From Spirochaetia bacterium (GTDB lineage Bacteria > Spirochaetota > Spirochaetia > DSM-16054 > Sediminispirochaetaceae): a stretch of DNA of 64,000 nt. Below, in pieces: positions 10,505 to 62,820 of this stretch (position 1 is its first letter; each line of letters starts with the position of its first letter). The position numbers and the translations under genes were made by a program. The stretch is from positions 128,001-192,000 of the forward strand of contig JAXHMY010000007.1 of NCBI GenBank assembly GCA_034520965.1. The letters are read 5' to 3'. Under the pieces are notes generated by a model that had not been told where the DNA came from, made no database searches, and worked only from the letters and a program-made list of their open reading frames with translations.

Positions 10505-10708
10505 AGCCTGCCGGAAAAGTGGAGAAAACTGGTGCAGTAGGGTACCCAATGCCTGTGCCTCGATGCCGTTAGTCAATGTTTTCAGGCGCCAAATTTGATT
10601 GACTAACCGTATCGGGCTCAAGCTGTTTTGGTTGCCTTCTCCCACCACCTTTTCCCGCCACCTTATCCCAGCAAAATGACCGTCCGGCGGCCCACAATCA
10701 CTATATCA

Positions 10709-16518: not shown

Positions 16519-16532
16519 GGGTGGTATCCTTT

Positions 16533-23757: not shown

Positions 23758-25296
23758 ATGAGTATCAGTAAAAAGGTATGTATATTATTCGTACTTATTA
23801 CCATTCTGGCTGGTTGTGCTACTTCTCAGTCGACCAGTGCAGAGAAAAAGGATGATTATTATAAAAGCTGGAGTATAGATTACGGCCGGCCTAAAGAGTA
23901 TGTAGAGCAGGGGCCCTACACTCAGATTGATCCGCAGTACCTCGCCGAGCTGGATATGATCGGTGAGATTTCTACTACTGATGATTTGCATAAAATCTAC
24001 CGTTATGTGTTTGATGAATACGCCCATCCTTCGGAAGTCGGGTATGAAGAGGACCCACTGCAGCGGGTTGAACAAATCAAGACAAATACGATACTCGAAC
24101 TGAAAATCCTGAGCGGTGAATTGTCTTACGCAACCTTGATGGCAAGTGTACTCCGGTATAAAGGTATACCGGCGCTCGTTGCACACGGAATGGCAATTGG
24201 CGGTGTACTGAATACTAATTCCGATTCAGATTATACCTTTGTTGAAGCGTATGTTGACGGCCGCTGGGTTCTATTGGATCCCACCAACCGAGATAAGCCA
24301 GCCCGCATAGGAGAGAGCTATGATCCTGCAAAGCCTGTAATCGATTTCGATGAGATCGATCTTGTTTCCCGACGAGGAGAGCAGATTGGCTATTACATTG
24401 TTGCGAAAGGATTAGATATGGCAGAAAGCGGATACCCCTCTCAGAAATCGCTGGAAAAAATCAAAGAAATTCATGAGGATTATATTAGAGAATATTTTTC
24501 AACCGAATCTTTCGAAAACACTTCTGGTGAAACAGAGAGCGCAGAGAAGGGCAAACCTCAAAATTCAGAGGAACCTGAGCTGAAAACAGTTTCCCTCACA
24601 AAGGAAGATGTGCAGAAGAAAATTCAAAACAGGTGGGGCATTGATTACAGCCGGCCCTCTCAATATCTGAAGCAAGGTCCGCAAACTCGAATACCACAAG
24701 AGTATCGGGAAGAGATTGATAATATTCTGGGGCCGGTAGAAAAAATCGGGTCAATTAATACAGGTATACGACTACATCCACGGTAATTATCGCACCGAAC
24801 CCGCCGGGGGGCGCTATATCGGAACAATGACTGTTGAAAAAATTTTGAGAGAAAGATTCTTACCGGCTGTCATGATCATGGCTTGTTTGTTGCTGCAATA
24901 CTAAGGCATAACGGAGTCCCGGCGATTCTTGTGGATGGTGTCGACTTGAATTTTGTTGAAAAGTATCCGAATCATGACGGGTACGGCGGCCATGTGTACG
25001 TAGAGGCGTATGTTGCTGGCAGTTGGGTTTTACTTGATTCAACGAACAGCCGCTATGTTGTCGACTACGATTATACCGACCCGGTGATAAATGAATTTGA
25101 GAACGAAAATGATCTTGAGCACCTCGGCAAATATGTGATGTTCAAAGGTCTCGACAGCAACTCTTACGGGATTGAAAAGCATGAAGATTTGATCAGTTAT
25201 TTGATAGCATATGCTGAATACCTGAATGATGAATATCAAGTTGAACCGTATTTTGAGAGATATCCGCGGCCGGAGAGCCGGCACATTCAGGATTAG
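23758..25296 (+). CDS. Lipoprotein with two transglutaminase-like domains, frameshift near 24760
   Basis: Lipobox LAGC; duplicated WxIDYxRP..Y..QGP and VEAYV.G.WVLLD; second copy has TGCHDHG and GHVYVE. Confidence 0.8.
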
Positions 25297-38499: not shown

Positions 38500-38866
38500 A
38501 CTACCGCTTTGTTCAAGTTTTAGTAGTAGATGCTACCGAAAAATATACTTTCCGGCAAGCGATTACTCCGTCGCGCAGCGCGGATGGGGAGGTTATATAA
38601 ACTACGGATATATAAGGTTTACGCACGTGGGTAACCACGGATGTGCACGGATGGGAGGGGGGAGGTTTTTGAGGGGTAAGAATTTTAGGCTACTATCCTG
38701 GGAGAGCGGCTGGCGATGGTTGACTGCCGCCGTCCCGATATCAGTATTCATTCGTGAACATCCGCGGTTTAATTTATCTTCTTCCATCCGCGCATATCCG
38801 TAGTTAATTTCTTTATTCCTGAAGCAATAGAGTGTTTTGTGCCTCTTTTACTATAGGGAGGCACGT

Positions 38867-39544
38867 ATGCCATCACACTATGATGCTTTGTTCAGGCGGC
38901 TGTTTGAGAACCCGGAGGTCAGTGCAGATTTTGCCCGTAACTACCTGCCGGTGGATTATAAAGGAAAAATCGACTTCGAGAGTGCTGCTATTGATCGGGA
39001 TCCACTGCAGTGTGCCGATTTAGTTGATGCTCTTAGCAGAGCACATGTACCGCACTTTGAACCGCTTTTGTTCGACTTGAACCGAATTGACGATAAGCGA
39101 CTGCGCGGATCTGTACAAACGGTGGTGGGCTTGCTATCTTTGAAGTATATTAAGCACCGCTTTACCGAGGGCCTGGTTGCTTACCTGCTGCAAGAGCTGC
39201 ATCGGCTACCACGTGAGAGCAACTTTTTGCATGAGTTCTATATGACTTTGATTAAGTTCAAAGCAGAGGAGGATCTGCAGAGGTTTCTGCAGATGGCCAG
39301 AGAGATGAATTACCGGGATATGGAGGAAGATATGATGACCTACGGACAGAGATTGTTAAAAGAGGGACGGGTCGAAGGTCTGCAAGACTCGTTGAAAAGA
39401 CAACTAAAGAAAAAATTCGGCCTGGAAACAGAGGAATCGGTGAAGATAAACCAGATTAAGGATTCCAACAAGCTGGAGGCTGCTCTTGATGAGATTTTAA
39501 GCGCAGAGACAAAGCAGCAGGTGCTGGAGAAGCTGGGGCTGTAG
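38867..39544 (+). CDS. Rpn family nuclease paralogue 1, catalytic core deleted in frame
   Basis: HYDALFRRLF start and KLGL end as in the 49722 copy but lacks 85 aa including TDLLY and YDHKS. Confidence 0.85.
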   Translation: MPSHYDALFRRLFENPEVSADFARNYLPVDYKGKIDFESAAIDRDPLQCADLVDALSRAHVPHFEPLLFDLNRIDDKRLRGSVQTVVGLLSLKYIKHRFTEGLVAYLLQELHRLPRESNFLHEFYMTLIKFKAEEDLQRFLQMAREMNYRDMEEDMMTYGQRLLKEGRVEGLQDSLKRQLKKKFGLETEESVKINQIKDSNKLEAALDEILSAETKQQVLEKLGL

Positions 39545-41346: not shown

Positions 41347-41715
41347 ACTTCACGTAGTGCTGTACGCATAGCTCCATTATACTCCTCTGTTACTCCTTTT
41401 CAAAGCAGGCGACACGACAGATATAAAAGATATTTAAGCCGCGGATGGGGAGGTTATATAAACTACGGATATATTGGGCTGCGCACGGGGGTAAACCACG
41501 GATGGGCGCGGATGGGAGGGGATGGGAGGAGAACTATTTTGGGGAGTTATTAGTTGTTCATCACAGTGTTGGCTGCGATATGTGTATATTGCCGACGGCG
41601 GGCGGTGAATACAGCCAGCCCAATATCAGTGTGCATCTGTGAAAATCCGTAGTTATTTTCTTGTTTCCTGAAGCAGCAGGCGGTTTTGTGCCTCTTTAAT
41701 TATAGGGAGGCGCGT

Positions 41716-42650
41716 ATGCCATCACACTATGATGCCTTGTTCAGGCGACTGTTTGAGAATCCGCAGGTCAGTGCAGATTTTGCTAGTAATTACCTGCCGG
41801 CGGAGTATCAGGAGAAAATCGATTTCAAGAGCGCTTCTATTGACCGGGATATCTATATCGATGAGGTTATAAGGCGAAATTACACCGATCTGCTGTACAG
41901 GTTTGATAAGAAAGAAGGTAGAGGACAGCTGTATTTGTACCTGCTGTACGATCACAAATCTTCACCGGACAAATGGGTGTCCATCCAGCTCCTGCGGTAT
42001 ATCATGCTCATCTACGCAAGTGAACTGAATGAGAACCCAGAAGGTGAATATACTGCCAGAGATTTTTCCGGTGGTCTTTTATCATGGGACTGAAGAGTGG
42101 AAGCCTTCTCTGCAATCTGCCGATTGTATTGATGCTATTAGTAAAGATCATGTCCCGCATTTTAAGCCGCTTCTGTTCGATTTGAACCGCATTGACGATA
42201 AACAGCTACTCGGATCTGTACAAACGGTGGTGGGCTTGCTATCTTTAAAGTATATCAAGCACCGCTTTACCGAGAGCCTGGTTGCTTATTTGCTGCAGGA
42301 GCTGCATAGGCTTCCGCGTGAGAGCAACTTTTTGCATGAGTTCTATATGACTCTGCTTAAGTTCAAAGCCGAGAAGGAGCTGCAGACCTTTCTGCAGATA
42401 GCCAGAGAGATGAATTACCCGGGACATGGAGGAAGATATAATGACACGCGAACAGAGACTTCTAAAAGATGGACGAATTGAAGCTTTACAGGATTCACTT
42501 AAGAGGCTTATAAAGAAGAAGTTCGGTTTGGAAACAGAGGAATCGGTGAAGATAAACCAGATCAAAGACCCCGCAAAGCTGGAGGCCGCTCTCGATGAGA
42601 TCCTAAGCGCAGAGACTAAGCAGCAGGTGCTGGAGAAGCTGGGGCTTTAG
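41716..42650 (+). CDS. Rpn family nuclease paralogue 2, two frameshifts (near 42035 and 42420)
   Basis: Three overlapping ORFs rebuild a full Rpn/YhgA-like protein. Confidence 0.85.
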
Positions 42651-42958: not shown

Positions 42959-43588
42959 TTATTTTTCTACCACACAGGTAAGCCAGGTGATAGCCTCGCG
43001 GCCCAGTCCGTCGCCGGTGGTGGCGCTGCTTATGCTGTGAAAGCCGGCGGATTTGGCCTGGTCGATCCACTCATCGGATGCGAGGAGCAGGTAGTATCGG
43101 CCTTTTTCGTCGTAGCCGCTTTCATCGAGGCCGGGGCGGCTTAAGGGTACGGAGAAGAGGAGTTTTCCGGCTTGCGTTAGCAGCTGGTGGAGGTGTTCGA
43201 AGGTAGGGTGCAGCTGCTCTTGCAAGAGGTGCATGAGGGAGGCGACCGCGTAGATGCCGTTGTAGTGCTCGTGCTCTAAGAGGGCAGCGGGCAGCTCATC
43301 GGGTAGGGCGCCTTGAAAGAGGCGTCCTTCGAGTTGGGGATGGAGGCAAAGGGCTCTGTCGATCATCGCGGGAGCGGGGTCGATGCCCTGGACTTCGTAT
43401 CCCTGCCCACACAGATAGGCTGCTTCCCGGCCGGAGCCGCATCCGATTTCGAGTAGTTGTGCGCCGGGGCTGAAAGTGTCGAGCAGCCGCCGGTGCAGAT
43501 CCGCTACTTCGGCGCGTTCGTAGCGTTGTGATAGTTTTTCTGCGTGCTGTTGGTAGTAGCGGATGGTCGAGTTCTTTTCGTGCTTCAT
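42959..43588 (-). CDS. Class I SAM-dependent methyltransferase
   Basis: LLEIGCGSG, GIYAVASLMH. Confidence 0.9.
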   Translation of the reverse strand: MKHEKNSTIRYYQQHAEKLSQRYERAEVADLHRRLLDTFSPGAQLLEIGCGSGREAAYLCGQGYEVQGIDPAPAMIDRALCLHPQLEGRLFQGALPDELPAALLEHEHYNGIYAVASLMHLLQEQLHPTFEHLHQLLTQAGKLLFSVPLSRPGLDESGYDEKGRYYLLLASDEWIDQAKSAGFHSISSATTGDGLGREAITWLTCVVEK

Positions 43589-43907: not shown

Positions 43908-45536
43908 CTATCTATCTCTTTTTATTGTGTATAACCCTAGTATTGGTTTATTCCACACCATATTTTTTAGCCAGTTGCTGAGGGTCTGGTAGTTGGGCAG
44001 GCCGAGTAGTTTGGCGGCCTGACGTTTGTTGCCGCCGGCCTGCTGTAGGGCCCGGGGCAGGTAGTGCTGCATTAGTTCAGTCACCACATTATCAATATTG
44101 AAGTCTTGGTTCAGGGGGCGGTTCAAAAAATGTGGGACGGCTGCGGGAGAATCGGGGGCCGGGTCGGGGCGCACCAGTGATTCTTCGAGGAGGCTGCGGT
44201 TTATTTCGACAGCCGGGCTCCAAAGACAGGCGCGAGTGAGGGTGTTGATCAACTCGCGCACATTCCCGGGCCAGCTGTATTCGCGGATCAGACGCCGGGC
44301 GTCGATTGAAAGCTGCTTGTCTTGCCAGCCTTCAACGCCGGCAAAGCGGGAGTTGAGCTGGCCCAGAAAGTGGTCGGTCAGGGCTTCGATGTCCCGTTTG
44401 CGGCTGTGCAGCGGGGGCAGCTTTAGCACGCCCACGGCTATCCGGTGGAACAGGTCGTTGCGGAAGCTGCCGTCGGCCGACTCGCGGGCCAGGTCGCGGT
44501 TTGTAGCGCTTATTATGCGAAAATCGGAGTGACGGCGGAGGGTGCTGCCGACCCGCTGGAAGGATTGGTCTTGCAGGACCCTCAGCAGAAGGACCTGCAC
44601 ATGCATCGGCAGCTCGCCGATTTCATCCAGAAACAGAGTTCCGCTGTGGGCTTCTTCGATATAGCCGGTTTTATCACTGGCAGCCCCGGTAAAGGCGCCT
44701 TTTACATATCCGAAGAGCTCGGATTCTACCAGGCCCTGGGGCAGGGCGCCGCAGTTGACCGATATAAAGGGGCCGTCCGCCCGGCCGGAGGCGTTGTGGA
44801 TGGCCTTGGCAAACAGCTCCTTGCCGGTGCCGGATTCACCGAGCAGCAGTACGGGCACGTCGAACAGGGCGATGCGACGGGCCCGGTTGACCGTTCTTTG
44901 CATGATTTTGGAGTGATGGATGATTTCGTCAAAGGCCGGGGTGGCCGGGAGCATTTCATCGGGTAAGGCCAGAAGTTTTTCGTCGACCGGGGAGGTGGTA
45001 GTGCTGCGGGGATGATACTCTGCCAAGATATCGAAGGGCAGGATGACCGTCCGCACTCCCTGCTCTTGGCTGGTTTCGATTAAGCGGGCTGGGTAAATGC
45101 TGCTGGCGATCAGGATCCAGGTGGCAGCCATGGCCGGGGTGCCAGGGCTCAGATGAAAGGTGAGGGCCGGAGCCGAATACAAGGGTTTCCCTTCGGCAGC
45201 CGAGCCTGTCTGTGCGGCGGTGCTGTGGCCTCTCTTATGCGGCTTAATTCCATTTAACACCTTAACGGCGTGCTCGTAGATTTCGGCAAACTCGGTGGGC
45301 GAGCTGAGCTCCACCAGGTGTGTCGAGATTTCGAGGTCCGAATGGCGCTGCTGCAGCCAGGCGACATAGGCGGTGGTCTCGGCCTGCGAATAATTGGAAA
45401 GCAGAGTGAGGGATTCGTAGGGCTCGGAGGCGAGGGCCTGGGCGATGGGGCCGGCGCCGACCCCGGGTTCGTGCTGGGAGGCACGGATATCAGTGCCTCC
45501 AAGCCATGCGCATAATCGCGGCGGTTGCAAGCTCAT
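43908..45536 (-). CDS. Sigma54-dependent activator with RtcR/CARF-like N-terminal domain
   Basis: [25 protein letters not shown], intact [22 protein letters not shown]-terminal HTH; real stop may be near 43948 if one A is missing. Confidence 0.88.
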
Positions 45537-45658
45537 AGGGTAATAGTATAACAAATCTTGTAGGGGCACAAGAAAATTTATTATGCTATTGGTAGGTAGG
45601 GGCCGGCGGCTGGCCGCGGGACGTAGCAGCCGGGTTGGGTGGCTGCGTGAAGCCTCGC

Positions 45659-46858
45659 TCACATTATCGCTCCGTAGAGCTCCACCGGATCGCTCAGGTC
45701 CCACAGGGTCCAGTTGCTGCTCATGGCATCGGAGAAACGGCCGATGGAGTCGTAGTCGATGGGGATCCAGTAGCCGGGACGCAGGTAGGCGGTGGTGTAG
45801 GCGACCTCAGTAAGGCTTCCGTTCTGGTCTGCTTCGCCACTGACGTGTATGTAGCCGTAGCCGTTGATCGGGCGGGCCGACCAGACCATGGCAAGGGCGT
45901 GTCCGCTGCCGCCGCCGGGCGGGTAGAAGCTGGCCACCTTGCTGTTCCAGCCCCAGAACTCCAGCAGGCCGCAGGTGTACAGGGCGAAGTCTTCGCAGTC
46001 GCCGCCCTGTTGGGCCAAAAACTCATCCGGGGGCAGGGCGCGGTGGTTCGCTCGGTAGGTAAACAGCCGGTAGGTCTGCCGCTGAAAGGCCTCTACCTCC
46101 CGCCAGCTGAGGTGTCCGTTGCGGTCGGTGTCGGCTCCCATGTAGCGGGCCAGGAGTTGGCCATTGGTCAGGCCGGTACGCTGATAAAAAAGGTGGGAGT
46201 TGATCCAGTAATGGGCCTGCCGCCCGCTGTTGAAGCTGCGGCCTAGCTGGGCAGCCGTTATCCGGCCACTGGAGCTGCGGGAGAGGCGGTAGCCGCGGTA
46301 GGTCCAGCTGGCCGGCGGAGTGGGGGCAGTGCTTCTCTCAGCTCGCCCGCCATCAGACCCGTGAGCCCTGTCGGCCTGGTAAGATTCGGATTCATCGGCC
46401 CTCGAACCGCCGGCGCCGTCGCTAAGGTACTCTGTCAGGACTCCGGAGCTAAGCAGTGCCCATAGGATTACTGCCAGCCCTGCGATAGTGAAGCTGAGCC
46501 GGAAGAACTCGGCCAAGCCGCTCGAACCGGTGTTTTTGGCCGCGGCGGTGGTGTTTTTCTCGACCGGCCGCGGAGGGGCTGCCCTCGGACTCGGGGTTGG
46601 GTTCCGGGTTTCGGGCGGGGCCGCCAAAATGTGGGCCTGCCCTTCGACGATTTGCAGCCTCCGCAGGGCAAATGTGCGCCGTTCATGGCGCAGGTAACAG
46701 TAGGTCCGCACGTAATTATTTCCCCAGCGCTCGTAAAACTCCAGCGGCACGATGATACGCTGCGATACCTCGCCTTCGCCGTTTTCATACTGTATTCGGA
46801 CCGATTGATGTCCGTTCTGCAGCGCCTCTAAGGCGCGGCGTGTCCGTAACTCTTCCAT
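45659..46858 (-). CDS. WYL domain - TM helix - transglutaminase-like cysteine protease fusion
   Basis: [67 protein letters not shown]-hand-like loop; [20 protein letters not shown]. Confidence 0.75.
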
Positions 46859-46869
46859 ACCAACCTATA

Positions 46870-46885
46870 TGCAATTTTCGTACCA
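46870..46885 (-). promoter_or_regulatory. Sigma54 promoter toward the WYL-transglutaminase gene
   Basis: Minus strand TGGTAC-GAAAA-TTGCA. Confidence 0.6.
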
Positions 46886-46892
46886 ATTCTCT

Positions 46893-46908
46893 TGGCATGG
46901 AAATTGCA
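46893..46908 (+). promoter_or_regulatory. Sigma54 promoter toward the outer-membrane protein gene
   Basis: TGGCAT-GGAAA-TTGCA. Confidence 0.7.
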
Positions 46909-47030
46909 TTTTATGTTTTTGGGATGCATGTCCTGTAGTCGATTTCCGGCCGTCGGAAAGCCGCAGGGCCAGAGCCAGTAGCCGGCTGCAGCGTGCAGCC
47001 TGACAAGTAAACCAGCGATGGAGGAAGTGT

Positions 47031-47612
47031 ATGCGCACTTTGTTGACGATTGTGTTGTTGTTTGGGTTTGCCGGGGGAGGTCTTTTTGCCCAGGCGGACG
47101 CACAGGGGCGGGGATTTATGTTTCAGATAGGTTTGGGAGCCGCTGAGATAGAGTGGCCCCAGGGGTTGAAAGAGCTGATGGACTATGCCGAAGGCCAGCC
47201 GGATATAGACCGGGTGAAGGTGCATCTGAACCTGGGCCTGGGGGCGGCAGTGAGCGAAAATCTGTACCTGTTGGGCAGTCTGCAGGGCTACGGCGACCGC
47301 CTGGAGGACAGCTATGGTGACTATGTCCAGATAAATGCGTATCTGTTTGGCCTGGGGCTGCGCTGGTATCCCTTTGTAGCCGGACTGGTGCTGGGCGGCG
47401 ACATCGGGGCCGCCCGCCTGGTGGCTATGGGCTCGGGGGTAGAGAGCAATGCCTCCGAATGGGGCAACGGCTTGGGCTTTACGGCCGGCTACGATTTCGG
47501 CGGCCGCCCGACCGGCGTGTCCCTGATTCTGGGGCTGCGGTTCGACGGCATGAGCGTCGAGGGCGAGTCGGTGGGCACCGCGGCCCTGTTTCTGAACCTG
47601 GCTTTTAAGTAA
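47031..47612 (+). CDS. Small outer-membrane beta-barrel protein
   Basis: GGAGG RBS, signal peptide, Gly/aromatic beta strands, LFLNLAFK end. Confidence 0.75.
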   Translation: MRTLLTIVLLFGFAGGGLFAQADAQGRGFMFQIGLGAAEIEWPQGLKELMDYAEGQPDIDRVKVHLNLGLGAAVSENLYLLGSLQGYGDRLEDSYGDYVQINAYLFGLGLRWYPFVAGLVLGGDIGAARLVAMGSGVESNASEWGNGLGFTAGYDFGGRPTGVSLILGLRFDGMSVEGESVGTAALFLNLAFK

Positions 47613-47704
47613 GTGAAAATAAAATATTTTGTTGCCGGTACAAATTATTTTATAGAAAGGGGCTGAGAAAGTCCGGCTCGCCCCGTTGCGGGGCAATTCT
47701 TTCC

Positions 47705-47720
47705 TGGCACGCTTCTTGCA
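47705..47720 (+). promoter_or_regulatory. Sigma54 promoter upstream of the second prsW-like gene
   Basis: TGGCAC-GCTTC-TTGCA, full consensus. Confidence 0.75.
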
Positions 47721-47954
47721 TAAAGTAGGGACCGGGCCTCAAGACCGGCGAGCCTGAGAGGGTCAGGTAAAGAGTGCATCTTATGTAAAAATGATATTTA
47801 AAAAACAGATGTAAAAAAGTGGCTTTTTTTGTCGCAGATGGGGAGGTTATATAAACTACGGATATATGGGGTTTCAGCAGGGCGGGCAACACGGATGGGG
47901 ATGGTTGGGAAAGACCGTGATTGACGGATGTGTTATAGTTGAGAAAAAGGGATT

Positions 47955-49481
47955 GTGAAAATGGTGTTGATTATTTCGGTGGCAACCAGTCTTATCTGGA
48001 TAAAAATTCTGAAAACCTTTGATGATGCCCAGGGGCTGAAGAGCAAGCGGACGGCGGTGAGCGGGTTTTTTCTGTACGGGCTGCTGAGCGTGCCGCTGGT
48101 GCTGCTGCTGTACGCATTGGCCGGACCGCTGGTGTATCCGATTACCCGCGATTCGGCGGTGCTGGAGAACCTGTTTTTGGTGGGGCCGGTGGAAGAGCTG
48201 GGCAAGTTCCTGGTTTTCTATCTGGTGGCTGTGGGCAGCGGGTCGATCCAGGAGCCCCGCGACGGGGTGCTGCACGCCGCTTCGGTGGGGCTGGCCTTTG
48301 CGGTGGTGGAGAACGTGTTTTACTCGGTATACGGCCTGGAATTGCTGCTGTACCGCTCTATGCTGACCACCGCCGGCCACATGAGTTATGCGGCCATCTG
48401 GGGTTTTGCGGCGGGGGTGTATTTGTACACACGGCCGGCGTTTATGCGGGCTGCGGCAGCGACTGCGGCTTCCCGGGGCTCAGCTGCCGGAGGGGCTGTG
48501 CCGCTTAAGCCTGGTGAATCGGAGAGCTTTGCCGACGGAGCGGCCTACGGGCCATCACTGGTGGTGAGTGCAGTGGCTTCGGCGGCCCTGCTGCACGGTC
48601 TGTACAACAGCTTTCTCGACCTGGGGGCCCTTGGTGCGGCCCTGCTGCTGGATGCCGGGACTGTTCTGCTGGCACTGGTCGGCCTGTCGCACCTGAAGAA
48701 ACTCTCCCCCTTCGCAGAGTTTCCGTTCTCGCAGTACCGCTTGGCTATTCCCCAGTTGAAGGAGGCCCTGCGGCACAATCCGGATAACTTCGTACTGCAC
48801 AAGCGCCTGGGGCTGCACTACATCCGCAGCCGGGACACCGCCAAGGGACGGCGCCACTTGCGACGGGCCTCCCACATCAGGCCGCGCGAGCTGTCCAGCC
48901 GCTTTTATCTGGCGCTGCTGGACTACCTGTTGGCGGGCCCGGGCAGACGAAGCCAAAGACAGCGGGCGAGGGGTGTGGTACCGGTGCTCTGGTCGCAGAG
49001 CAGGCTGATCGGCGGGGCTACACTGCGGCTTGGCAATAAAGCTGCAAACGATCCTGCAGCTGCTCCCGCCGATGAGGCCCGCCAGGCCCTGCACCGCCTG
49101 GCTGTGCGGATACCCCTGAAAAGCCTGAGACAGCTGCGCCGCCAGGTGAAACAGGTTTTTGCGGTACATCCGCGCCGCCGCGAGCTGTTTGAAATATGCG
49201 AGGAACTGGTTGCCGGTAAACGCGGTAAGAGCAGCAGCCCCCTGGACCGTGACGGGGTACTGCACCGCGGCCGGGAATATCCTGCGCACGAGGAGAGGCT
49301 TCGCGGGAAGGCGGCTCAAGAGGGATTGGCTCGCGAGTGTCCGGCCCTCGCGTCCGACACGAAGTCGGGGAGAATTTACTTTCCCGAGCCTCCCCTGGCG
49401 GCGGTGAATCCGCAGCTGGCCGCTAGGAAGATTCGTGCGACCGGCAGGATCATCGAACAGAAACGGCGGGAGATCGGCTGA
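47955..49481 (+). CDS. PrsW-family intramembrane metalloprotease with TPR-like C-terminus
   Basis: VEELGK, FAVVEN, GHMSY, HGLYN; paralogue of the 22444 gene. Confidence 0.85.
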   Translation: MKMVLIISVATSLIWIKILKTFDDAQGLKSKRTAVSGFFLYGLLSVPLVLLLYALAGPLVYPITRDSAVLENLFLVGPVEELGKFLVFYLVAVGSGSIQEPRDGVLHAASVGLAFAVVENVFYSVYGLELLLYRSMLTTAGHMSYAAIWGFAAGVYLYTRPAFMRAAAATAASRGSAAGGAVPLKPGESESFADGAAYGPSLVVSAVASAALLHGLYNSFLDLGALGAALLLDAGTVLLALVGLSHLKKLSPFAEFPFSQYRLAIPQLKEALRHNPDNFVLHKRLGLHYIRSRDTAKGRRHLRRASHIRPRELSSRFYLALLDYLLAGPGRRSQRQRARGVVPVLWSQSRLIGGATLRLGNKAANDPAAAPADEARQALHRLAVRIPLKSLRQLRRQVKQVFAVHPRRRELFEICEELVAGKRGKSSSPLDRDGVLHRGREYPAHEERLRGKAAQEGLARECPALASDTKSGRIYFPEPPLAAVNPQLAARKIRATGRIIEQKRREIG

Positions 49482-49721
49482 ATAGCAGAACAGGCAAGCG
49501 ACAGTGAACCAGACCTCCGGTAACAGCCGCACTTGTGGTCGACGCTGTGCCGGCACGGATGGGCGCGGATGGAAGGGGGAACAATTCTAAATATCTTGAA
49601 GGCAGGTGCCTCCCGACCTAATATCTGTGTTCATCCGTGTAAATCCTTAGTTAAATTTTTTTCCTGGTTTTTTTGAAGCAGAAGGCGCCTTTTGTGCCTC
49701 TTTTACTATAGGGAGGCGCGT

Positions 49722-50726
49722 ATGCCAGCACACTATGACGCTTTGTTCAGGCGGCTGTTTGAAAAGCCGGAGGTCAGCGCAGATTTTATTCGTAATTATC
49801 TGCCGGCGGGCTATCAGGGGAAAATAGATTTCGAAAGTGCTACTATTGATCCGGACACCTATATCGATGAGGTTCTCCGACGGAATTACACTGATCTGCT
49901 GTACAGGTTTGATAAAAGAGAAGGCGGCGGACCGCTGTATGTGTACCTGCTGTACGACCACAAATCATCACCGGACAAATGGGTGTCCATTCAGCTGCTG
50001 CGTTATATCATGCTCATCTACAGGAAGGAGCTGGAGAAGAAACATCCGCCGACGATACTACCGGAGGTGTTTCCGGTGGTCTTCTATCATGGGACTGAAG
50101 AGTGGACCCATTCACTGCAATGCGCCGATACTATTGATGCGCAGCGCAGAGAACATCTGCCGCATTTTAAGCCGTTTCTGTTTGATTTGAACCGTATTGA
50201 TGATAAACAGCTGCGCGGATCTGTACAAACGGTGGTGGGCTTGCTATCTTTAAAGTATATCAAGCAGCGCTTCACCGAGAGCATAGTTGCTTACCTGCTG
50301 CAAGAGCTGCATCGGCTACCGCGTGAGAGTAGTTTTTTGCATGAGTTCTATATGACTCTGATTAAGTTCAAAGCAGAGGAGGAGCTGCAGAGGTTTCTGC
50401 AGAAGGCCAGAGAGATGAATTACCGGGATATGGAGGAAGATATAATGACGCGCGAACAGAGATTGTTAAAAGAGGGTCGGGCCGAAGGGCTTGAAAAAGG
50501 ACTTCAAGAGGGCCGTGTCGAAGGACTTCAAGAAGGACGAGGTGAGGGCCGTGTCGAAGGCCTGCAAGACTCGTTGAAACGACAACTGAAGAAGAAGTTC
50601 GGTCTGAAAACGGAAGAATCGGTGAAGATAAACCAGATTAAAGAGCCAGCTAAATTAGAATCGGCCCTGGATGAGATAATAACCGCAGAGACCAAGCAGC
50701 AGGTGCTAGACAAGCTGGGCCTGTAG
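49722..50726 (+). CDS. Rpn family recombination-promoting nuclease (intact paralogue 3)
   Basis: HYDALFR, TDLLY, YLLYDHKS, PVVFYHG..W, EG-repeat linker, DUF4351-like C-terminus. Confidence 0.9.
   Translation: MPAHYDALFRRLFEKPEVSADFIRNYLPAGYQGKIDFESATIDPDTYIDEVLRRNYTDLLYRFDKREGGGPLYVYLLYDHKSSPDKWVSIQLLRYIMLIYRKELEKKHPPTILPEVFPVVFYHGTEEWTHSLQCADTIDAQRREHLPHFKPFLFDLNRIDDKQLRGSVQTVVGLLSLKYIKQRFTESIVAYLLQELHRLPRESSFLHEFYMTLIKFKAEEELQRFLQKAREMNYRDMEEDIMTREQRLLKEGRAEGLEKGLQEGRVEGLQEGRGEGRVEGLQDSLKRQLKKKFGLKTEESVKINQIKEPAKLESALDEIITAETKQQVLDKLGL
50445..50726 (+). CDS. Putative intragenic small protein RpnS (antitoxin)
   Basis: GGAGG at 50432 then in-frame ATG at 50445; equivalents at 39335 and 42441. 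Confidence 0.65.
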   Translation: MTREQRLLKEGRAEGLEKGLQEGRVEGLQEGRGEGRVEGLQDSLKRQLKKKFGLKTEESVKINQIKEPAKLESALDEIITAETKQQVLDKLGL

Positions 50727-51208
50727 TGCCCCCGCGGATGGGGAGGGGATGAGTGAATTGCGGAGCTAATTCTATTCATTGTAAATAAGTATTAGTGATT
50801 GAGTAGCAGGCTTTTATATTCTTATTAGCCGCTGACTGTTAATAATAGTAAGTTTTAGAAACAGAATTATCTTCTGAATTGATTTTTAATTTCCTCACAA
50901 TTTATTATCTGTGTACATCCGCGTTCATCCGTAGTTTATTAATAATCTTCCCCATCCGCGGTCCGTTCGCCTGCTTTTTAGTGCACAATGCCCTCGGCCG
51001 GCAGGTGGTGTATCAGGTGTATTACAAAGGTCATATGGCCGGTGACTACGTGGCCTATACTGTCAATAATGGACAATAATTTTTAGTTGTTATTTAATGT
51101 AGCATAAAATTTTTTATTTCTATTACAAGTTATTTTATCTATAGGAAAAATCCATCTTGATTTAGCTCACTTACTGTTTCTTATTACCCCAAATTCAACC
51201 CTTATTTT

Positions 51209-51224
51209 TGGCATGCTTATTGCT
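51209..51224 (+). promoter_or_regulatory. Sigma54 promoter upstream of the lipoprotein pair
   Basis: TGGCAT-GCTTA-TTGCT. Confidence 0.7.
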
Positions 51225-51303
51225 AACATAACTGCAGGATTATTTATTAGCCACTGCATTGTTGAATGACTTTCTTAGGTGGCCATCAAAAGGAGCAGTA
51301 AGT

Positions 51304-52038
51304 ATGCAAAAGATTTTATTAGTTCTTGCCTTCGCATCAGTAGTATTGAGCTCATGTGTCTCCTACCGACTCGATCCGGTACCGAACCAGAATATCGAGG
51401 TTCGACATGAGCGGGGCGCAACATATCCCATCTACGAAAGTTCAAAGATAGGAATGGTTGTAGCACCAGAGTTTAGAGAATCGGAGCTGATGGTAAAGGT
51501 GACTGTGAAGAATAACAGCGGCAAAGAGATGTTTATCAGCGATACGGATTTTATAGTCGAAGTGAGCGAGGACAGGCAGAACTGGAACCCGCTTAAAGTG
51601 TATGCATCGGATGAGTACTACGCTAAGGAAAAGCGCGCGTATACCGTTGGGGCGGTGTTGATGGTTATCTCGGCCACCGCCGATACCGCTTCCGCCGGCT
51701 ATGGCAGCAGTACTACCAGCGGAAATGTGTACGGTTCGGGTACCTACGGTTCCTATTCCGGAAGCTACAGCGGCACCACCACTTACTACGATCCGACTGC
51801 AGCTGAATTGGCGGCTCAACGCAATTCCCAGATGGTTTCGCAGTATGCCCAGGAAGGGCAGGGCTGGCTGCAGCTGCTCGAGGACAATCTATTTTATTCG
51901 AAGGACCTACGGCCAAACGAGACCTATTTCGGTTTAGTGTTTGCAGAGAAAGGCTATGGAGATTACTACCGCATCACCTGTACTAATCCTGATTTTGAGA
52001 TTGTACGGATTGAGTATGTAAAGCGGGAGGATAGATAA
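51304..52038 (+). CDS. Hypothetical lipoprotein with Gly/Ser/Tyr-rich segment
   Basis: AGGAG RBS, lipobox LSSC. Confidence 0.75.
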   Translation: MQKILLVLAFASVVLSSCVSYRLDPVPNQNIEVRHERGATYPIYESSKIGMVVAPEFRESELMVKVTVKNNSGKEMFISDTDFIVEVSEDRQNWNPLKVYASDEYYAKEKRAYTVGAVLMVISATADTASAGYGSSTTSGNVYGSGTYGSYSGSYSGTTTYYDPTAAELAAQRNSQMVSQYAQEGQGWLQLLEDNLFYSKDLRPNETYFGLVFAEKGYGDYYRITCTNPDFEIVRIEYVKREDR

Positions 52039-52114
52039 GTTGCGGGCACTATTTTATAAAAACCTAATGTTGCTGAATCGATTTCAGGAGCATACAATGT
52101 GAAAGGAAGTAAAA

Positions 52115-53152
52115 ATGAAAGTGAAGATATTGAAACATGTAGTATTGCCAATTTTTATTAGCGTTATGTTCATATCATGTACATCAATGGTTGAAAACGG
52201 AACTATGAGTCGTACTCAATCGACACCGGCGTCGACGCCATCAGCTAAGAATAATGCAGTCAGTGAAAAAGATGAGGGCAGCGAAGAACTTCAATCAGCC
52301 CAAGAGCGTATTGCCGAACTCGAGGCAGAGAACAAACAGCTAAAGGAAGAAATAGAGTCGCTCAATCAATCTCCGGAGGTGATGTTTCGAAAAGCGGTAT
52401 CACTTAAGGAGGATGACCCGCAGCAGGCGATGAGGCTGCTAAAGGAAATAACTGTCAAGTTCCCACTTAGTGAGTACAGTGAACCTGCGCAGGAAGAGTT
52501 AGCAGCGTTGGTCAAAACTACTGAAGAAGAACTAAAGCGAGTACTTTCGGAGAAAGAGATTCCTGCCGAAGCAAGGTTACAGACTATTCAAATTACTTTA
52601 GACAGTTATGGAAGCTATCTGAGTGATGAGCTTGTGAGCCGAGCTGAGCAAGAAATAGAGGAGTTGCAAACGGAGATCAAGCGAACTAAATATATCCGTT
52701 CGCGTTATGATGAGATGCAGGAGGTTACTTTTCACTCATCCCGCAGAGATACTTCAACAAGAACTAATCGGGGATACTTTTCAATCGATTTCTATATAGT
52801 CGAGTCGGATAAAACCGACAGTACCTATTTTAGATTCCGTGCGAATTACCGGGGAGAAAGTTGGATTTTTTATAAGAAAATTACTCTGCTGGGGAGTAAC
52901 GGAGTAAAGCTTGAAATCGAGCCCGATGAGTACCGGGAAAAAGAAACCGAGGTTGAGACGGGAGGTGTGCGGGAGTGGTCCGACAGCTACCTTTCCGATT
53001 CCTACAATGACAAAATTCTCGAACTGGCCGAGGCGGAGACTGTTAAGGTGCGATTTGACGGAAAGTATCGCATTGATTTTGAGATGACCGAGAAACAGCG
53101 TGCGGCGCTGAAGGAGATAGTCTCGCTGTATGAACACCTTTCTAAGGGATAG
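52115..53152 (+). CDS. Hypothetical lipoprotein (coiled coil, TPR-like helix, C-terminal beta domain)
   Basis: Lipobox ISC, IAELEAENKQLKEEI, KFPLSEY. Confidence 0.75.
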   Translation: MKVKILKHVVLPIFISVMFISCTSMVENGTMSRTQSTPASTPSAKNNAVSEKDEGSEELQSAQERIAELEAENKQLKEEIESLNQSPEVMFRKAVSLKEDDPQQAMRLLKEITVKFPLSEYSEPAQEELAALVKTTEEELKRVLSEKEIPAEARLQTIQITLDSYGSYLSDELVSRAEQEIEELQTEIKRTKYIRSRYDEMQEVTFHSSRRDTSTRTNRGYFSIDFYIVESDKTDSTYFRFRANYRGESWIFYKKITLLGSNGVKLEIEPDEYREKETEVETGGVREWSDSYLSDSYNDKILELAEAETVKVRFDGKYRIDFEMTEKQRAALKEIVSLYEHLSKG

Positions 53153-58007: not shown

Positions 58008-58209
58008 AGATATTTAGATGGTGTTCATTGAGAAGAACCGAGTAGAACGTCAATTCAAGAATATAACACTGATGTTATATAGTCTCAAGGAATGTTATTA
58101 CTATTAAGATTCCAGGTATAGGATTTACCGGTAGCATGGTGACGTTATATTTAGATACCATGGTAATTACATCTATTTTAGAGGCGATGTTAAAAAAGGG
58201 AGGTTGCAG

Positions 58210-59049
58210 ATGGAAACAAACCAGCTCGAAAGCTGGACAAACAGAGGCGCAATTCAATCGTCGATAAACTCACATGAGGCCATTCGCTCTGCATTATCTT
58301 CAAGTACCGGACTATCCAATAGTAATTACGAAGTATACCTCCAGGGATCCTGATAAGAATAGTACAAATATCCGGGGAATAGCGATGTCGATGTGGTAGT
58401 ACAATTAAATAGCTGTTTCTACTCTAATCTCTCCGATTCTGAAAAATCTCAATTAGGATTAATACCAGCATCATACGGTTTAAGCGACTTTCGCCACAAT
58501 GTAATGGACGCATTGGTCAATCGATTTGGTTCAGCGAACGTTGTGCAAGGAAACAAATCAGTTAAGATACAATTTAATTCTACCGGTGTCGTGCCTGCAG
58601 ACGTCGTTGTGTGTATTGAATACCGACACTATTCAGCACTCAGGGTTTTATATACTGGAATGGGATTCCTAACCAACGCAGGACAAGAACTCATTATTAA
58701 CTATCCAAAGCTTCATTATGAAAACGGTACAAAAAAATCAGACCGAACCAGTGGGGCATATAAGAAAACCGTACGTATGTTCAAGAATGCAAACCGATAT
58801 TTTAGAGAGCGGTACCAAGCACGAACTGTTCCTTCGTATCTTATAGAATGTTCACTTTATAATATAAAAGATTCGCTGTTTAGTTTTCAGTTGAGGGATA
58901 GGTTCTACAAGATAGCGTCACTACTTGCAGAAGATGATGTGAGTAATTTTGTTTCTCAGAATGGGATAGGTACACTTTGGGGGAATCGTCCCGATCAGTT
59001 TGAAGCGAGTTTACTTCGAAAGTTCGCTTGCAATATGCAGAAACTTTAG
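58210..59049 (+). CDS. CBASS CD-NTase (CdnE-like), interrupted by a compensating indel pair at 58352-58378
   Basis: GGAGG RBS; YEVYLQGS[YKNSTNIRG]NSDVDVV, GNKSVK, ADVV, INYPKLHYENG..K, YKKTVRMFKN, SYLIE..LYN. Confidence 0.85.
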
Positions 59050-60062: not shown

Positions 60063-61898
60063 ATGGATTTAAACAAATTAAAAAAATTCTCCCGCAACAT
60101 GCGCGTGAAACTGATAGAACAGATTGAACAGCGTCTTAATTATGTGGTTGGGGTGGAAGATGAATATACCCGGGCGCATGCTGGTGAGATTAAGATAATT
60201 AATAAGCTCATTAATAAAGAAGGGAAGGAACAGTTTCTCGAAGAGGTTGCGTACACCTGGTTCAACAGACTTGCCGCACTTCGATATATGGATGTAAAAG
60301 GCTACAACAAGACGAAGATTGTATCGCCTTCTGAGGGAGAATCACAATCGCAGCTCCTTGCCGTGATAAAACAGGGAAAGCTGCCGGAGGAAATCAAGCG
60401 GGTATCTGATCAGGTATTCGGATATCTCGATGGCAAAATAAAGGCACAACAACCGGACCGGGAAGCATACCGCACGGCTCTGCTTGCGATGTGTAATGAT
60501 CTGGGGCGTATTCTTCCTTTTCTCTTCAAGCAGGTTGACGACTGGGCTGCTCTGCTGTTACCGACGGACCTTTTGTCTCCCCAATCTATTATTGCAGAAT
60601 TCCGTGAAGGCATGGGTGATGAGGAGTGCAGTGATGTAGAGATTATCGGCTGGCTCTATCAGTTCTATATTGCGGAGAAAAAGAACAAGGTTATCGGTGA
60701 TCTCAAGAAAAATAAAAAGATAGAAAAAGAAAATATTCCTGCTGCTACCCAGCTCTTTACTCCACATTGGATTGTCCGGTATATGACTGAAAACTCCCTT
60801 GGGCGTCTATGGATGTTGAATCGTCCAGAGTCGAAGATCATTGAAGGGATGGAATATTACATTCCATCGGAGGATATCGAGGACGATTTTCTTATAATAA
60901 GAGGCCCTGAAGAAATCAAAATCTGCGATCCTGCATGTGGAAGTGGCCATATGCTTACCTACGCGTTTGATCTTCTCTACCGAATGTATGAGGAGGATGG
61001 TTATTCGTCAGGAGAAATTCCAGAGCTTATTATCAGAAATAACCTTTATGGGCTCGAGATTGACGAGAGAGCGGGGGAGTTAGCGGCGTTTGCCCTTACG
61101 ATGAAGGCCCGCGAGAGGGATCGGTATTTTTTTAGACGTGGTTTATATCCGATGATACGGGTGCTTCATCCGGTGGATCTAAGCGATTTCTCAGAGCTGA
61201 AGGAACTTGTGAATTTCCTTTCCGGAGATGACATTGACCGCGATACGGTTCTCCATGATCTCAGGCTTTTCAAAGCGGCGGATAATTTCGGGTCACTACT
61301 AAGGCCAAGTTTAACTGAATTGGAATGTGAGAAGGCACTGAAAAGACTTGATGAGTATGAAGCAGGGTTAGCGAATCCTTCTCTGGAGGAAATGGAACTC
61401 GTAACCCGCTGCAGAAACGCTTTAGGCCATGCACGCATGCTCTCCCGGAAGTATCATGTGGTCATAGCCAATCCGCCGTATATGGGGAACAAAGGCTTAA
61501 ATAATAATCTGAAAAGTTTACTGCAGGATGAGTATTTAGATGTAAAGTCGGATCTTTTTTCAGCATTTATAGTAAGAAATACCGAACTTACATTACCACA
61601 AGGACAACTTGGTTTTATGACACCTTTTGTTTGGATGTTCATATCTTCCTATGAAAAACTACGATTATTCATGATTGATAATAAAACGATTACCTCTCTT
61701 GTTCAGTTAGAGTATTCGGGTTTTGAAGGAGCTACTGTTCCTGTATGTACCTTTACATTAGAGAATGCCCATAAACCTAAATTCCGAGGTGGGTATGTTC
61801 GATTGGCTGATTTTAAGGGAGCAGCTAAGCAGGGTCCTAAGGCATTAGAGATTATTCAGTCATATCGTGATTCAAGGAGATCAAATGATATTCACTAA
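60063..61898 (+). CDS. pglX: BREX adenine methyltransferase PglX, N-terminal half only
   Basis: EVAYTWFNR, IIGWLYQFY, IPAATQLFTPHWIV, DPACGSG, NPPY; 611 aa versus roughly 1150-1200 aa for typical PglX. Confidence 0.92.
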   Translation: MDLNKLKKFSRNMRVKLIEQIEQRLNYVVGVEDEYTRAHAGEIKIINKLINKEGKEQFLEEVAYTWFNRLAALRYMDVKGYNKTKIVSPSEGESQSQLLAVIKQGKLPEEIKRVSDQVFGYLDGKIKAQQPDREAYRTALLAMCNDLGRILPFLFKQVDDWAALLLPTDLLSPQSIIAEFREGMGDEECSDVEIIGWLYQFYIAEKKNKVIGDLKKNKKIEKENIPAATQLFTPHWIVRYMTENSLGRLWMLNRPESKIIEGMEYYIPSEDIEDDFLIIRGPEEIKICDPACGSGHMLTYAFDLLYRMYEEDGYSSGEIPELIIRNNLYGLEIDERAGELAAFALTMKARERDRYFFRRGLYPMIRVLHPVDLSDFSELKELVNFLSGDDIDRDTVLHDLRLFKAADNFGSLLRPSLTELECEKALKRLDEYEAGLANPSLEEMELVTRCRNALGHARMLSRKYHVVIANPPYMGNKGLNNNLKSLLQDEYLDVKSDLFSAFIVRNTELTLPQGQLGFMTPFVWMFISSYEKLRLFMIDNKTITSLVQLEYSGFEGATVPVCTFTLENAHKPKFRGGYVRLADFKGAAKQGPKALEIIQSYRDSRRSNDIH

Positions 61899-62820
61899 TA
61901 ACGGCGTCGTGTATTCGCGGATCGAGTTCAGGAGCGAGGAAGAAGTAGAGAATGTGGTCATCGATAACTTTAAACTTCTGTTCGGCGATTATTCCATCCT
62001 CCTGCCAAAACGGCTGATTGCAACTTCGGGTGGGAAGGGAACCATACCCGACGGTATTATCATCAATTTCGAGGAAGATCTGTGGTATATCCTTGAGGTT
62101 GAACGCGGGATCCACGGTACCTGGGAGCATATTGCGCCGCAGGTGGTAAAGCAGATAACTGCTATGCAGAACGGGGAAACCAAGAACAAGATTGTCGATA
62201 ACTGTATCAGAGAGATCGGAAAGAAAAGTGGTTTTACCGATCTGCTGGCTGAGATCGATATTCAAGAAATAGGTATTCATGGACGCTTGAATAGGATTCT
62301 CAAAAAAGAACCGATAGTGGCCTTGCCGATTGACATGATTCCCAATGATCTCGAAGAGTGGGCAAAAAGCTTGCGTGTACCGGTAAAAATTTGGCTTGTA
62401 GAAAAGTATTCCGACCTGCAGGGAAATATTCTCTACCACATACCCGATATCGAGGAGCACCTTGCGCAAGCAGAGAATGGGCTGAGTTATACTGAAGAGG
62501 AGCTTCGCAGCGGGAACCTGCTTGAGAAGGTGGTAAAGGCAGGTTTTCTCCATGATGGACAACGAGTATATATGGACTACGGGAAAAAGGGGCAGCCGAA
62601 GACCCACTTCGATGGGATAATACGAGTAGATGGCATAGATGTAGACGGTACTGTTTCTTCTCCCAGTATATCTTCACTGCGCTGTATACAATCGGTTAAT
62701 CCTGAACGGACCACTTCAAACGGCTGGGTTACCTGGAAGACAGAAGACGGCAAACTCATCGATGATGCGTATCAACGGTTTAAGGAGAGTATTCGAGAAA
62801 GTGAGAATACGGTACAATAA
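61885..62820 (+). CDS. PD-(D/E)XK-like nuclease fused to a RAMA-like domain
   Basis: SEEEVE..TIPDG..YILEVE; C-terminal LVKAGFL..G..SPS..NGWVTWK pattern; AAGGAG RBS inside the pglX 3' end. Confidence 0.65.
   Translation: MIFTNNGVVYSRIEFRSEEEVENVVIDNFKLLFGDYSILLPKRLIATSGGKGTIPDGIIINFEEDLWYILEVERGIHGTWEHIAPQVVKQITAMQNGETKNKIVDNCIREIGKKSGFTDLLAEIDIQEIGIHGRLNRILKKEPIVALPIDMIPNDLEEWAKSLRVPVKIWLVEKYSDLQGNILYHIPDIEEHLAQAENGLSYTEEELRSGNLLEKVVKAGFLHDGQRVYMDYGKKGQPKTHFDGIIRVDGIDVDGTVSSPSISSLRCIQSVNPERTTSNGWVTWKTEDGKLIDDAYQRFKESIRESENTVQ

Follow-up and report, generated by a model that had tools for sequence, protein, structure and literature searches.

A candidate sigma54 regulon with a CARF-type activator, a WYL-transglutaminase partner and envelope genes beside BREX in a Spirochaetia bacterium

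The locus described here lies in a 64,000-nt stretch of DNA (hereafter the window) from Spirochaetia bacterium GCA_034520965.1 (contig JAXHMY010000007.1, positions 128,001-192,000), a 3.35-Mb assembly that is 86% complete; the region studied spans window positions 43908-53152. On the minus strand, a gene for a protein with a WYL domain, a transmembrane (TM) helix and a transglutaminase-like domain is followed after 122 nt by one for a sigma54 activator, the two forming one co-directional operon. On the plus strand, genes for a beta-barrel protein, a PrsW-family protease, an Rpn/YhgA-like protein and two lipoproteins (lp1 and lp2) are followed by brxA, brxB and brxC of a BREX system, and every long open reading frame (ORF) from 47031 to the window end lies on this strand. 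An earlier, sequence-only reading of this DNA had proposed a sigma54 envelope and defence regulon driven by a CARF-like activator next to BREX and CBASS genes. The analysis reported here indicates that the locus is probably an acquired, spirochaete-specific sigma54 regulon in which an RtcR_PspF2 activator and four promoters serve the activator's own operon and a set of envelope genes, with BREX lying outside it. The ORFs of this module are all intact, and its principal genes are as follows, with protein lengths in amino acids (aa).

43908-45536, minus strand: RtcR_PspF2-family enhancer-binding protein, 542 aa (Pfam, PADLOC PDLC01995, AF2 model, Foldseek)
45659-46858, minus strand: WYL domain, single TM helix, EF-hand-like loop and transglutaminase-like domain, 399 aa, first gene of the operon (Pfam, alignment)
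47031-47612, plus strand: small outer-membrane beta-barrel protein, 193 aa, with signal peptide (sequence, atlas lead, Pfam matches in the family)
47955-49481, plus strand: PrsW-family intramembrane protease with a TPR C-terminal region, 508 aa (Pfam)
51304-52038, plus strand: lipoprotein lp1, 244 aa, with lipobox LSSC and a Gly/Ser/Tyr-rich centre; true start 51304
52115-53152, plus strand: lipoprotein lp2, 345 aa, with lipobox FISC, a coiled coil and a C-terminal domain

The activator is taken to start at ATG 45536 (542 aa) and not at GTG 45704, judged from the starts of its homologues and of its own copy in the protein collection searched, and comprises a CARF domain (approximately residues 1-200), a sigma54 AAA+ domain with a GAFTGA motif, an AAA lid and a putative C-terminal Fis-type helix-turn-helix (HTH). 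The AAA+ domain matches Sigma54_activat (PF00158) at E 8.4e-66 (221 bits); this match and the translation bear out the intact GAFTGA that had been noticed from the sequence, a motif that is nearly invariant across a 40-sequence alignment. The HTH scores 21.3 bits against HTH_8 (cut-off 22), its C-terminal columns are conserved, and the alignment to the PADLOC CARF_AAA_HTH model reaches residue 526 of 542. That model, RtcR_PspF2--CARF_AAA_HTH (PDLC01995), matches the protein at E 7.3e-175 (580.7 bits, model positions 4-478 of 481), with weaker matches to the sister models RtcR_PspF1 (239.6 bits) and RtcR (192.6 bits), and among the assembly's activators only that of the module matches the CARF part of the RtcR_PspF2 model. 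The first 200 residues have 703 relatives. An AlphaFold (AF2) model of the N-terminus, built from 40 sequences (pLDDT 82.2, pTM 0.75), gave 65 Foldseek matches in the PDB at E <= 0.001, the best being Csm6 (5fsh, E 6e-6), at query-normalised TM-scores of approximately 0.4-0.5; the matches listed were all CARF proteins (Csm6, Cam1, Card1, Can2, Cad1 and ring nucleases). Judged by this model, the N-terminus is a CARF fold, and the RtcR/CARF-like character suspected earlier is upheld by the AF2 and Foldseek results, by the RtcR_PspF2 match and by relatives (P0061, P0011 and P0042) that score above the Pfam RtcR cut-off. Moreover, two loops are invariant in the 40 sequences, WLGxTD after strand 1 (W11, G13, D16) and HLSPGTPAM after strand 4 (H128-M136). 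They follow model strands 7-11 and 125-128, which suggests a conserved ligand pocket in the CARF domain.

The first gene of the operon encodes a protein whose WYL domain (PF13280, E 2.6e-7) begins at residue 17 and whose family profile matches the WYL domain of PafBC at E 3e-13. Its transglutaminase-like domain matches Transglut_core at E 1.3e-5, and C288, H320 and D368 are invariant across 44 sequences. The predicted arrangement would place a ligand-binding WYL domain in the cytoplasm and the Cys/His/Asp domain in the periplasm, and the protein could act as a second sensor or co-regulator beside the activator. The family is small: 5.8 billion proteins yielded 65 clusters, and the few organism labels among them read Spirochaetota, Treponema and Alkalispirochaeta, plus Bacillota once. 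The protein is present in two of nine other same-genus genomes and, in full length, in 2 of 401 genomes of the phylum, the window's own included. No HTH domain was matched in it by Pfam, by sequence or in the family alignment. Because it lacks an HTH and is membrane-anchored, the possibility that it is a BREX regulator of the BrxR/CapW/PafBC type was rejected.

A second PrsW gene (22444-23646; 30% identity to the module PrsW, E 3e-31) is present elsewhere in the window, directly followed by a transglutaminase-like gene (23758-24786), and no sigma54 motif was found upstream of this pair. The second transglutaminase-like protein has no detectable relation to the WYL protein beyond the superfamily and was set aside as its relative, and the arrangement hints that PrsW and transglutaminase-like proteins act as a pair.

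Four sigma54-type promoters face these genes, and a terminator-like hairpin separates the beta-barrel gene from the third of them.

46870-46885, minus strand: P1 (TGGTACGAAAATTGCA), sigma54-type, ending 11 nt short of the WYL gene's ATG
46893-46908, plus strand: P2 (TGGCATGGAAATTGCA), sigma54-type, back to back with P1 and facing the beta-barrel gene
47680-47694, plus strand: terminator-like hairpin after the beta-barrel gene, before P3
47705-47720, plus strand: P3 (TGGCACGCTTCTTGCA), sigma54-type, 235 nt before the PrsW start
51209-51224, plus strand: P4 (TGGCATGCTTATTGCT), sigma54-type, for lp1-lp2, downstream of the Rpn/YhgA-like gene

A strict pattern (TGGYAYN5TTGCW) is matched five times in the 64-kb window, where 0.23 matches would be expected, a count attained in 0 of 100 shuffles. 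Across the 3.35-Mb genome it has 25 matches, of which four lie inside the module's 4.4 kb; the fifth match in the window (15915, plus strand) is inside a minus-strand ORF. The four -24/-12 motifs listed in the sequence-only reading (46870 minus, 46893, 47705 and 51209) are thus confirmed well above expectation, and their positions agree with its assignment of them to the WYL-transglutaminase gene, the beta-barrel, PrsW and the two lipoproteins. That these targets encode envelope proteins, as had been supposed, is supported by Pfam matches, by the signal peptide and lipoboxes, and by OMP_b-brl matches in the family of the beta-barrel. Specifically, the PrsW protein matches PrsW-protease (M82; PF13367) at E 6.2e-20 (72 bits, cut-off 23.5); the beta-barrel has 155 relatives, and 18 of 46 aligned members match Pfam OMP_b-brl, while a profile search of solved structures returned nothing significant for it; and the lp1 family consists of 19 clusters without annotation.

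Upstream of two of the promoters are candidate sites at which the activator could bind, and a further one lies within the regulator operon.

45568-45581, no strand assigned: single candidate 14-mer in the intergenic spacer, after the WYL gene stop and ahead of the activator start
47619-47653, no strand assigned: candidate upstream activator sequence 1, two AT-rich, palindrome-like 14-mers at 21-nt spacing, located 86 nt upstream of P3 (first site to -24)
51104-51138, no strand assigned: candidate upstream activator sequence 2, two 14-mers at 21-nt spacing, located 105 nt upstream of P4

Candidate sequences 1 and 2 share 76% identity over 42 nt and are the sole 14-mer pairs of this kind in the genome. 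With at most one mismatch allowed, the 14-mer has nine strand-hits in the window versus 0.9 expected, and nine versus 0.10 expected at a related spirochaete locus (L020, in genome G421). At L020 the hits lie between divergent promoters, upstream of two more promoters and before the activator start (10704-10717), and one site is 105 nt upstream of a promoter identical to P4.

Neighbourhoods were examined at 20 loci out of the 703 activator homologues, among them spirochaete loci (L003-L007 and L014-L020, with L004 and L019 being the same) and non-spirochaete homologue loci (L008-L012). The WYL-TM-transglutaminase gene adjoins an RtcR-type activator in 8 of the 10 loci with usable context (the window, L003, L004=L019, L005, L007, L015, L016 and L017). 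It is co-directional with and upstream of the activator in the window, L003, L004, L005 and L007, and divergent or otherwise ordered in L015, L016 and L017. The exceptions are L014, where the WYL gene lies between AbiE modules, and L018, neither of which has an activator near that gene. All nine activators tested in relatives have RtcR_PspF2 as their best model. In a quick tree, the clade of the window's activator is well apart from that of L015-L017, the latter on long branches, with the result that the number of origins of the pairing cannot be counted.

The other parts of the module recur as well. PrsW is a neighbour of the activator-WYL pair at three loci (the window, L004 and L007); a homologue of the beta-barrel with 40% identity lies behind a -24/-12 motif in L015; and an lp2 homologue in L007 and L020 stands behind a 16-mer promoter identical to P4. 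The -24/-12 motifs on which the sequence-only reading was built therefore recur in the loci of relatives. Their placement is also constrained, since the promoter ends 11 nt before the WYL ATG in 4/4 loci of the close clade (window 46858-46885, L004 4113-4142, L007 4798-4827 and L014 11145-11172), and in L016 (~8941-8968) the same spacing precedes the activator gene instead. A spacing of 11 nt predicts an mRNA that is leaderless or has a one-base leader, and from these coordinates the transcript of the regulator operon probably has little or no leader. At L015 and L017 the leader is of the usual kind and contains a ribosome-binding site. It should also be noted that in L004 (2925-3410) and L007 (4197-4814) the divergent sigma54 promoter is followed first by a gene for a small cytoplasmic protein instead of the beta-barrel, the two translations being alike by eye; the cargo of the regulon thus varies between loci.

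Comparison with G421 further shows how one part of the module may have travelled. Window positions 51208-53146 align with L020 positions 16225-17308 at 83-87% DNA identity, an alignment that takes in the promoter, the final 38 nt of lp1 and the whole of lp2 (83% over lp2), and the homology ends exactly at the stop codon of lp2, the last shared gene. The rest of the module has only 38-60% protein identity to G421, where most of lp1 is missing. The promoter-lp1-lp2 cassette thus appears to have been transferred recently from one copy of the module to another. On the larger scale, the GC content of the module (59-63%, versus 48% for the genome) and its patchy occurrence in relatives are the basis for regarding the module as horizontally acquired. 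One gene between PrsW and lp1 stands apart from the others.

49692-50726, plus strand: Rpn/YhgA-like (Transposase_31) gene (Pfam), with 44-nt direct repeats on either side (49609-49652 and 50893-50936)

Because it is flanked by direct repeats and no counterpart was found in L020, this gene is read as an insertion between PrsW and lp1 that lies outside the regulon.

Taken together, a mechanism can be outlined. The CARF domain would hold the ATPase off until an intracellular signal binds, which, by analogy with RtcR, may be a ligand derived from a nucleotide or an RNA end, or a protein partner. The activator, bound to AT-rich tandem 14-mers approximately 100 nt upstream, would then remodel the sigma54 holoenzyme at the four promoters. 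One promoter would drive the operon of the WYL-TM-transglutaminase and the activator itself, giving positive autoregulation, and the other three would drive the outer-membrane beta-barrel, the PrsW-TPR protease and the two lipoproteins.

A different route for the signal can be drawn from the same genes, although we consider it unlikely. Here the stimulus would be periplasmic: the WYL protein, through its cytoplasmic WYL domain, would keep the activator tethered and inactive at the membrane, PrsW-TPR would cleave the WYL protein upon envelope damage and so release the activator, and the CARF domain would be a protein-docking surface. Such a relay fits the close pairing of the activator with a single-pass WYL protein (8 of 10 loci, spanning two separated clades), the presence of PrsW beside the pair in three loci, and outputs that are all envelope proteins; in addition, according to PMC9650030, RtcA and RtcB directly bind the CARF domain of RtcR. 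However, the pocket loops of the CARF domain are invariant also in members that have no WYL partner, which argues for a conserved small ligand. Moreover, PrsW is itself behind a sigma54 promoter and could be the first trigger only if a basal level of it were made, and it was not seen beside the pair in L015-L017.

A link to defence was central to the sequence-only reading, and it extends to the proposal that the CARF activator senses infection or RNA damage and that P4, by read-through, induces BREX (and CBASS) along with the envelope genes. The wider family gives this some background. According to Makarova et al. (2014; PMC4012209), RtcR-like proteins of CARF-AAA+-HTH architecture that are not linked to Rtc often accompany restriction-modification (R-M) systems, and the authors propose that they sense infection-derived ligands; in Bell et al. 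(2024; PMC11090510), RtcR homologues are predicted to drive CoCoNuT and other defence superoperons. Among the five non-spirochaete loci compared here, L012 has HsdR/HsdM directly downstream of the homologue, L010 has a HEPN gene and a gene with a restriction endonuclease domain, and L011 has UvrD and DprA/SLOG, whereas the contexts of L008 and L009 do not clearly fit a defence picture; at L010-L012, the R-M genes were not preceded by any convincing -24/-12 motif. The observation that the lipoprotein genes run into brxA on the same strand holds, with a gap of 97 nt. No terminator-like site is present in that gap, which means that read-through from P4 into BREX is possible as far as the gap itself indicates, and the window carries brxA, brxB, brxC and pglX.

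Several results nonetheless detach BREX from the module. In tblastn searches, L003-L007 (E <= 1), L014-L019 (E <= 1e-3) and L020, the locus where homology stops at the lp2 stop codon, gave no BrxA-like sequence, and no BREX families were found among the Pfam-scanned ORFs of related spirochaete loci; among the loci compared, BREX is beside the module in the window only. No sigma54-like motif was found before brxA or in the later spacers. The CBASS cyclase (CD-NTase, 58135-59049), whose downstream part matches the PADLOC Cyclase model at E 6e-57, has TGA, TAA and TAG within 12 nt (58351-58362) in its frame, between the GS and DVD of the catalytic motif, and is probably a pseudogene. The 2TM/Cap15 effector that follows it is intact, and the cyclase-effector pair lies between brxC and pglX. 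With its cyclase frame broken, CBASS is not an easy source of ligand for the activator. Consequently, the link to BREX and CBASS is weakened: of the neighbourhood as first described, the WYL partner, PrsW, the beta-barrel and lp2 recur in relatives, but the adjacency of BREX was not found in them. BREX looks like a neighbouring island placed there by chance and not a conserved member of the module, and control of BREX as part of one defence superoperon appears quite improbable. As a separate observation, PglX is seemingly split, with one ORF (60063-61898, 611 aa) corresponding to approximately the first half of models of ~1200 aa and overlapping a second (61867-62820) that has a weak RAMA match.

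The preferred reading, an acquired sigma54 regulon facing the envelope, has points that weigh against it. The N-terminus of the activator alone scores 13.1 bits against Pfam RtcR, below the cut-off of 23.1. The 14-mer pattern was written after the window and L007 had been seen, and the shuffles ignore locally AT-rich spacers, so that its enrichment is overstated; in addition, no 14-mer with at most one mismatch was found near P1 and P2, which are 7 nt apart. A copy of an ~80-nt repeat (~47837-47915) sits in the 235-nt leader of PrsW and could block or replace expression driven by P3. The main formal caveat concerns rpoN, whose absence from the genome had been named in the sequence-only reading as fatal to it. 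Indeed, a search of the 86%-complete assembly for the rpoN domain families Sigma54_DBD and Sigma54_CBD found neither, the rpoN region of a same-genus genome had no tblastx match in it, and rpoN synteny gave no clean counterpart. Given that incompleteness, the eight strong sigma54 activators that the genome holds, and the presence of rpoN in 20/20 relatives searched (9/9 in the same genus), the missing gene is treated as an assembly gap. That the motifs are relics or chance matches in a module that is silent in its host, as the missing rpoN, the foreign GC content, the repeat in the PrsW leader and the Rpn gene inserted between PrsW and lp1 might suggest, is highly improbable in view of motif counts far above expectation (5 versus 0.23 in the window, and 4 of the 25 genome-wide here), the motif position conserved with 11-nt spacing in 4/4 close-clade loci, the intact ORFs, the eight activators and the rpoN of all 20 relatives.

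The island around the module contains many toxin-antitoxin genes, an SNF2 helicase, BREX and the CBASS pair. The ~80-nt dispersed repeat mentioned above occurs in 12-13 copies within 34 kb of the window, all in plus orientation (14230, 18866, 22316 (partial), 26614, 29898, 32506, 34612, 38583, 39555, 41444, 42661, 43801 and 47837), with only four further copies elsewhere in the assembly. These copies border gene cassettes and Rpn/YhgA-like genes, one being in the PrsW leader and one directly after the activator stop, and the island may have been assembled by recombination at them. Rpn/YhgA-like (Transposase_31) genes number three in 12 kb (38837-39544, 41686-42481 and 49692-50726), the first being partial and the middle one broken into two ORFs. 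Downstream of the activator, between two of the repeats, is a class I S-adenosylmethionine (SAM) methyltransferase gene (42959-43588) with a GC content of 59%, like that of the module, and with no counterpart found in related loci. Further from the module, a DctM transporter gene (5130-6396) is represented by two overlapping ORFs and a PAS/HisKA_2 sensor kinase gene (19325-21841) by three, likely as a result of frameshifts or assembly errors. No Rfam family reached its gathering score anywhere in the window.

The module can be placed alongside several known systems. PspF, the activator of the phage-shock response, lacks a sensor domain and is under the control of PspA. The module likewise has a sigma54 activator for a membrane or envelope response, with an AAA+ domain for which PspF structures are matches (E 5e-50), but its activator has a CARF sensor and no PspA-like gene is found at the module. 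In Bacillus subtilis, PrsW acts on the anti-sigma factor RsiW in the regulated proteolysis that leads to SigW. Here too, a PrsW-family protease and a single-pass membrane protein are encoded with a transcription activator; however, that activator is of the sigma54 type and not an extracytoplasmic function (ECF) sigma factor, and the membrane protein has WYL and transglutaminase-like domains. LapD/LapG inside-out signalling couples a cytoplasmic ligand-binding domain, a degenerate EAL, to a transglutaminase-like Cys/His/Asp enzyme that is periplasmic and has a calcium-type loop. The WYL protein similarly joins a predicted periplasmic Cys/His/Asp domain and calcium-type loop to a cytoplasmic ligand-binding domain, although a single polypeptide holds both parts and WYL takes the place of the degenerate EAL as sensor. 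A weak profile match of the WYL protein to chain 4fgo, 'Periplasmic protein' (E 0.0049), is a lead only.

RtcR, the sigma54 activator of the rtcBA RNA-repair operon, is alike in its divergent CARF domain, its NtrC-type AAA+ domain with GAFTGA and, as predicted for the module activator, its HTH, and several relatives of the module activator score above the Pfam RtcR cut-off. In contrast to RtcR, the module has no adjacent rtcBA: no RtcA or RtcB families were found among the window ORFs scanned, and RtcB has its sole match at 781-782 kb of contig C1. The module N-terminus is also below the Pfam RtcR cut-off with RtcR_PspF2 as its best PADLOC model, and its promoters face envelope genes. To the RtcR_PspF2 family itself, the activator is tied by its full-length profile match and by the same best model in all nine relatives. 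The published contexts for that family are R-M, CoCoNuT and defence, whereas here and at seven further spirochaete loci the partner is a WYL-transglutaminase, with promoters that face the envelope. In the CalpL-CalpT-CalpS system, a type III CRISPR signal is reported to be passed to transcription via the SAVED-Lon protease CalpL and an ECF sigma factor. The module would resemble it in linking a nucleotide-sensor domain to a change of transcription in infection, but differs in these two components, and the assembly yielded no Cas10 palm domain. No description of a module of CARF activator, WYL-transglutaminase and PrsW was found in the literature searched, which did not extend to the 2020 CARF classification. 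While the family itself was already known, the spirochaete pairing of its activator with WYL-transglutaminase, PrsW and envelope genes appears new.

CARF domains are best known as nuclease switches in CRISPR type III immunity. To the best of our knowledge, RtcR is the one studied case in which a CARF domain drives sigma54 transcription, and the wider RtcR-like family is only predicted to control restriction or defence operons. The locus and its relatives offer a compact, testable case, with four promoters, candidate enhancers, a presumably autoregulated operon, and a membrane partner that has a second ligand-binding domain (WYL). They also caution against inferring function from adjacency in defence islands, in that BREX appears to have landed beside the module. 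A speculative and rather doubtful extension is that the module encodes a two-sensor response to nucleic-acid damage or infection that changes the cell surface, in which CARF would induce surface proteins and WYL would gate the periplasmic enzyme from the inside out, within one polypeptide but much as in LapD/LapG. If this were true, a WYL-gated, calcium-type transglutaminase-like enzyme would process or cross-link the induced surface components, and the output of a CARF domain would be envelope remodelling and not a nuclease, which could mask receptors or exclude further phage. More broadly, the locus could reveal to which stimuli RtcR-like activators respond, and whether signalling by a CARF domain may be directed at the cell envelope.

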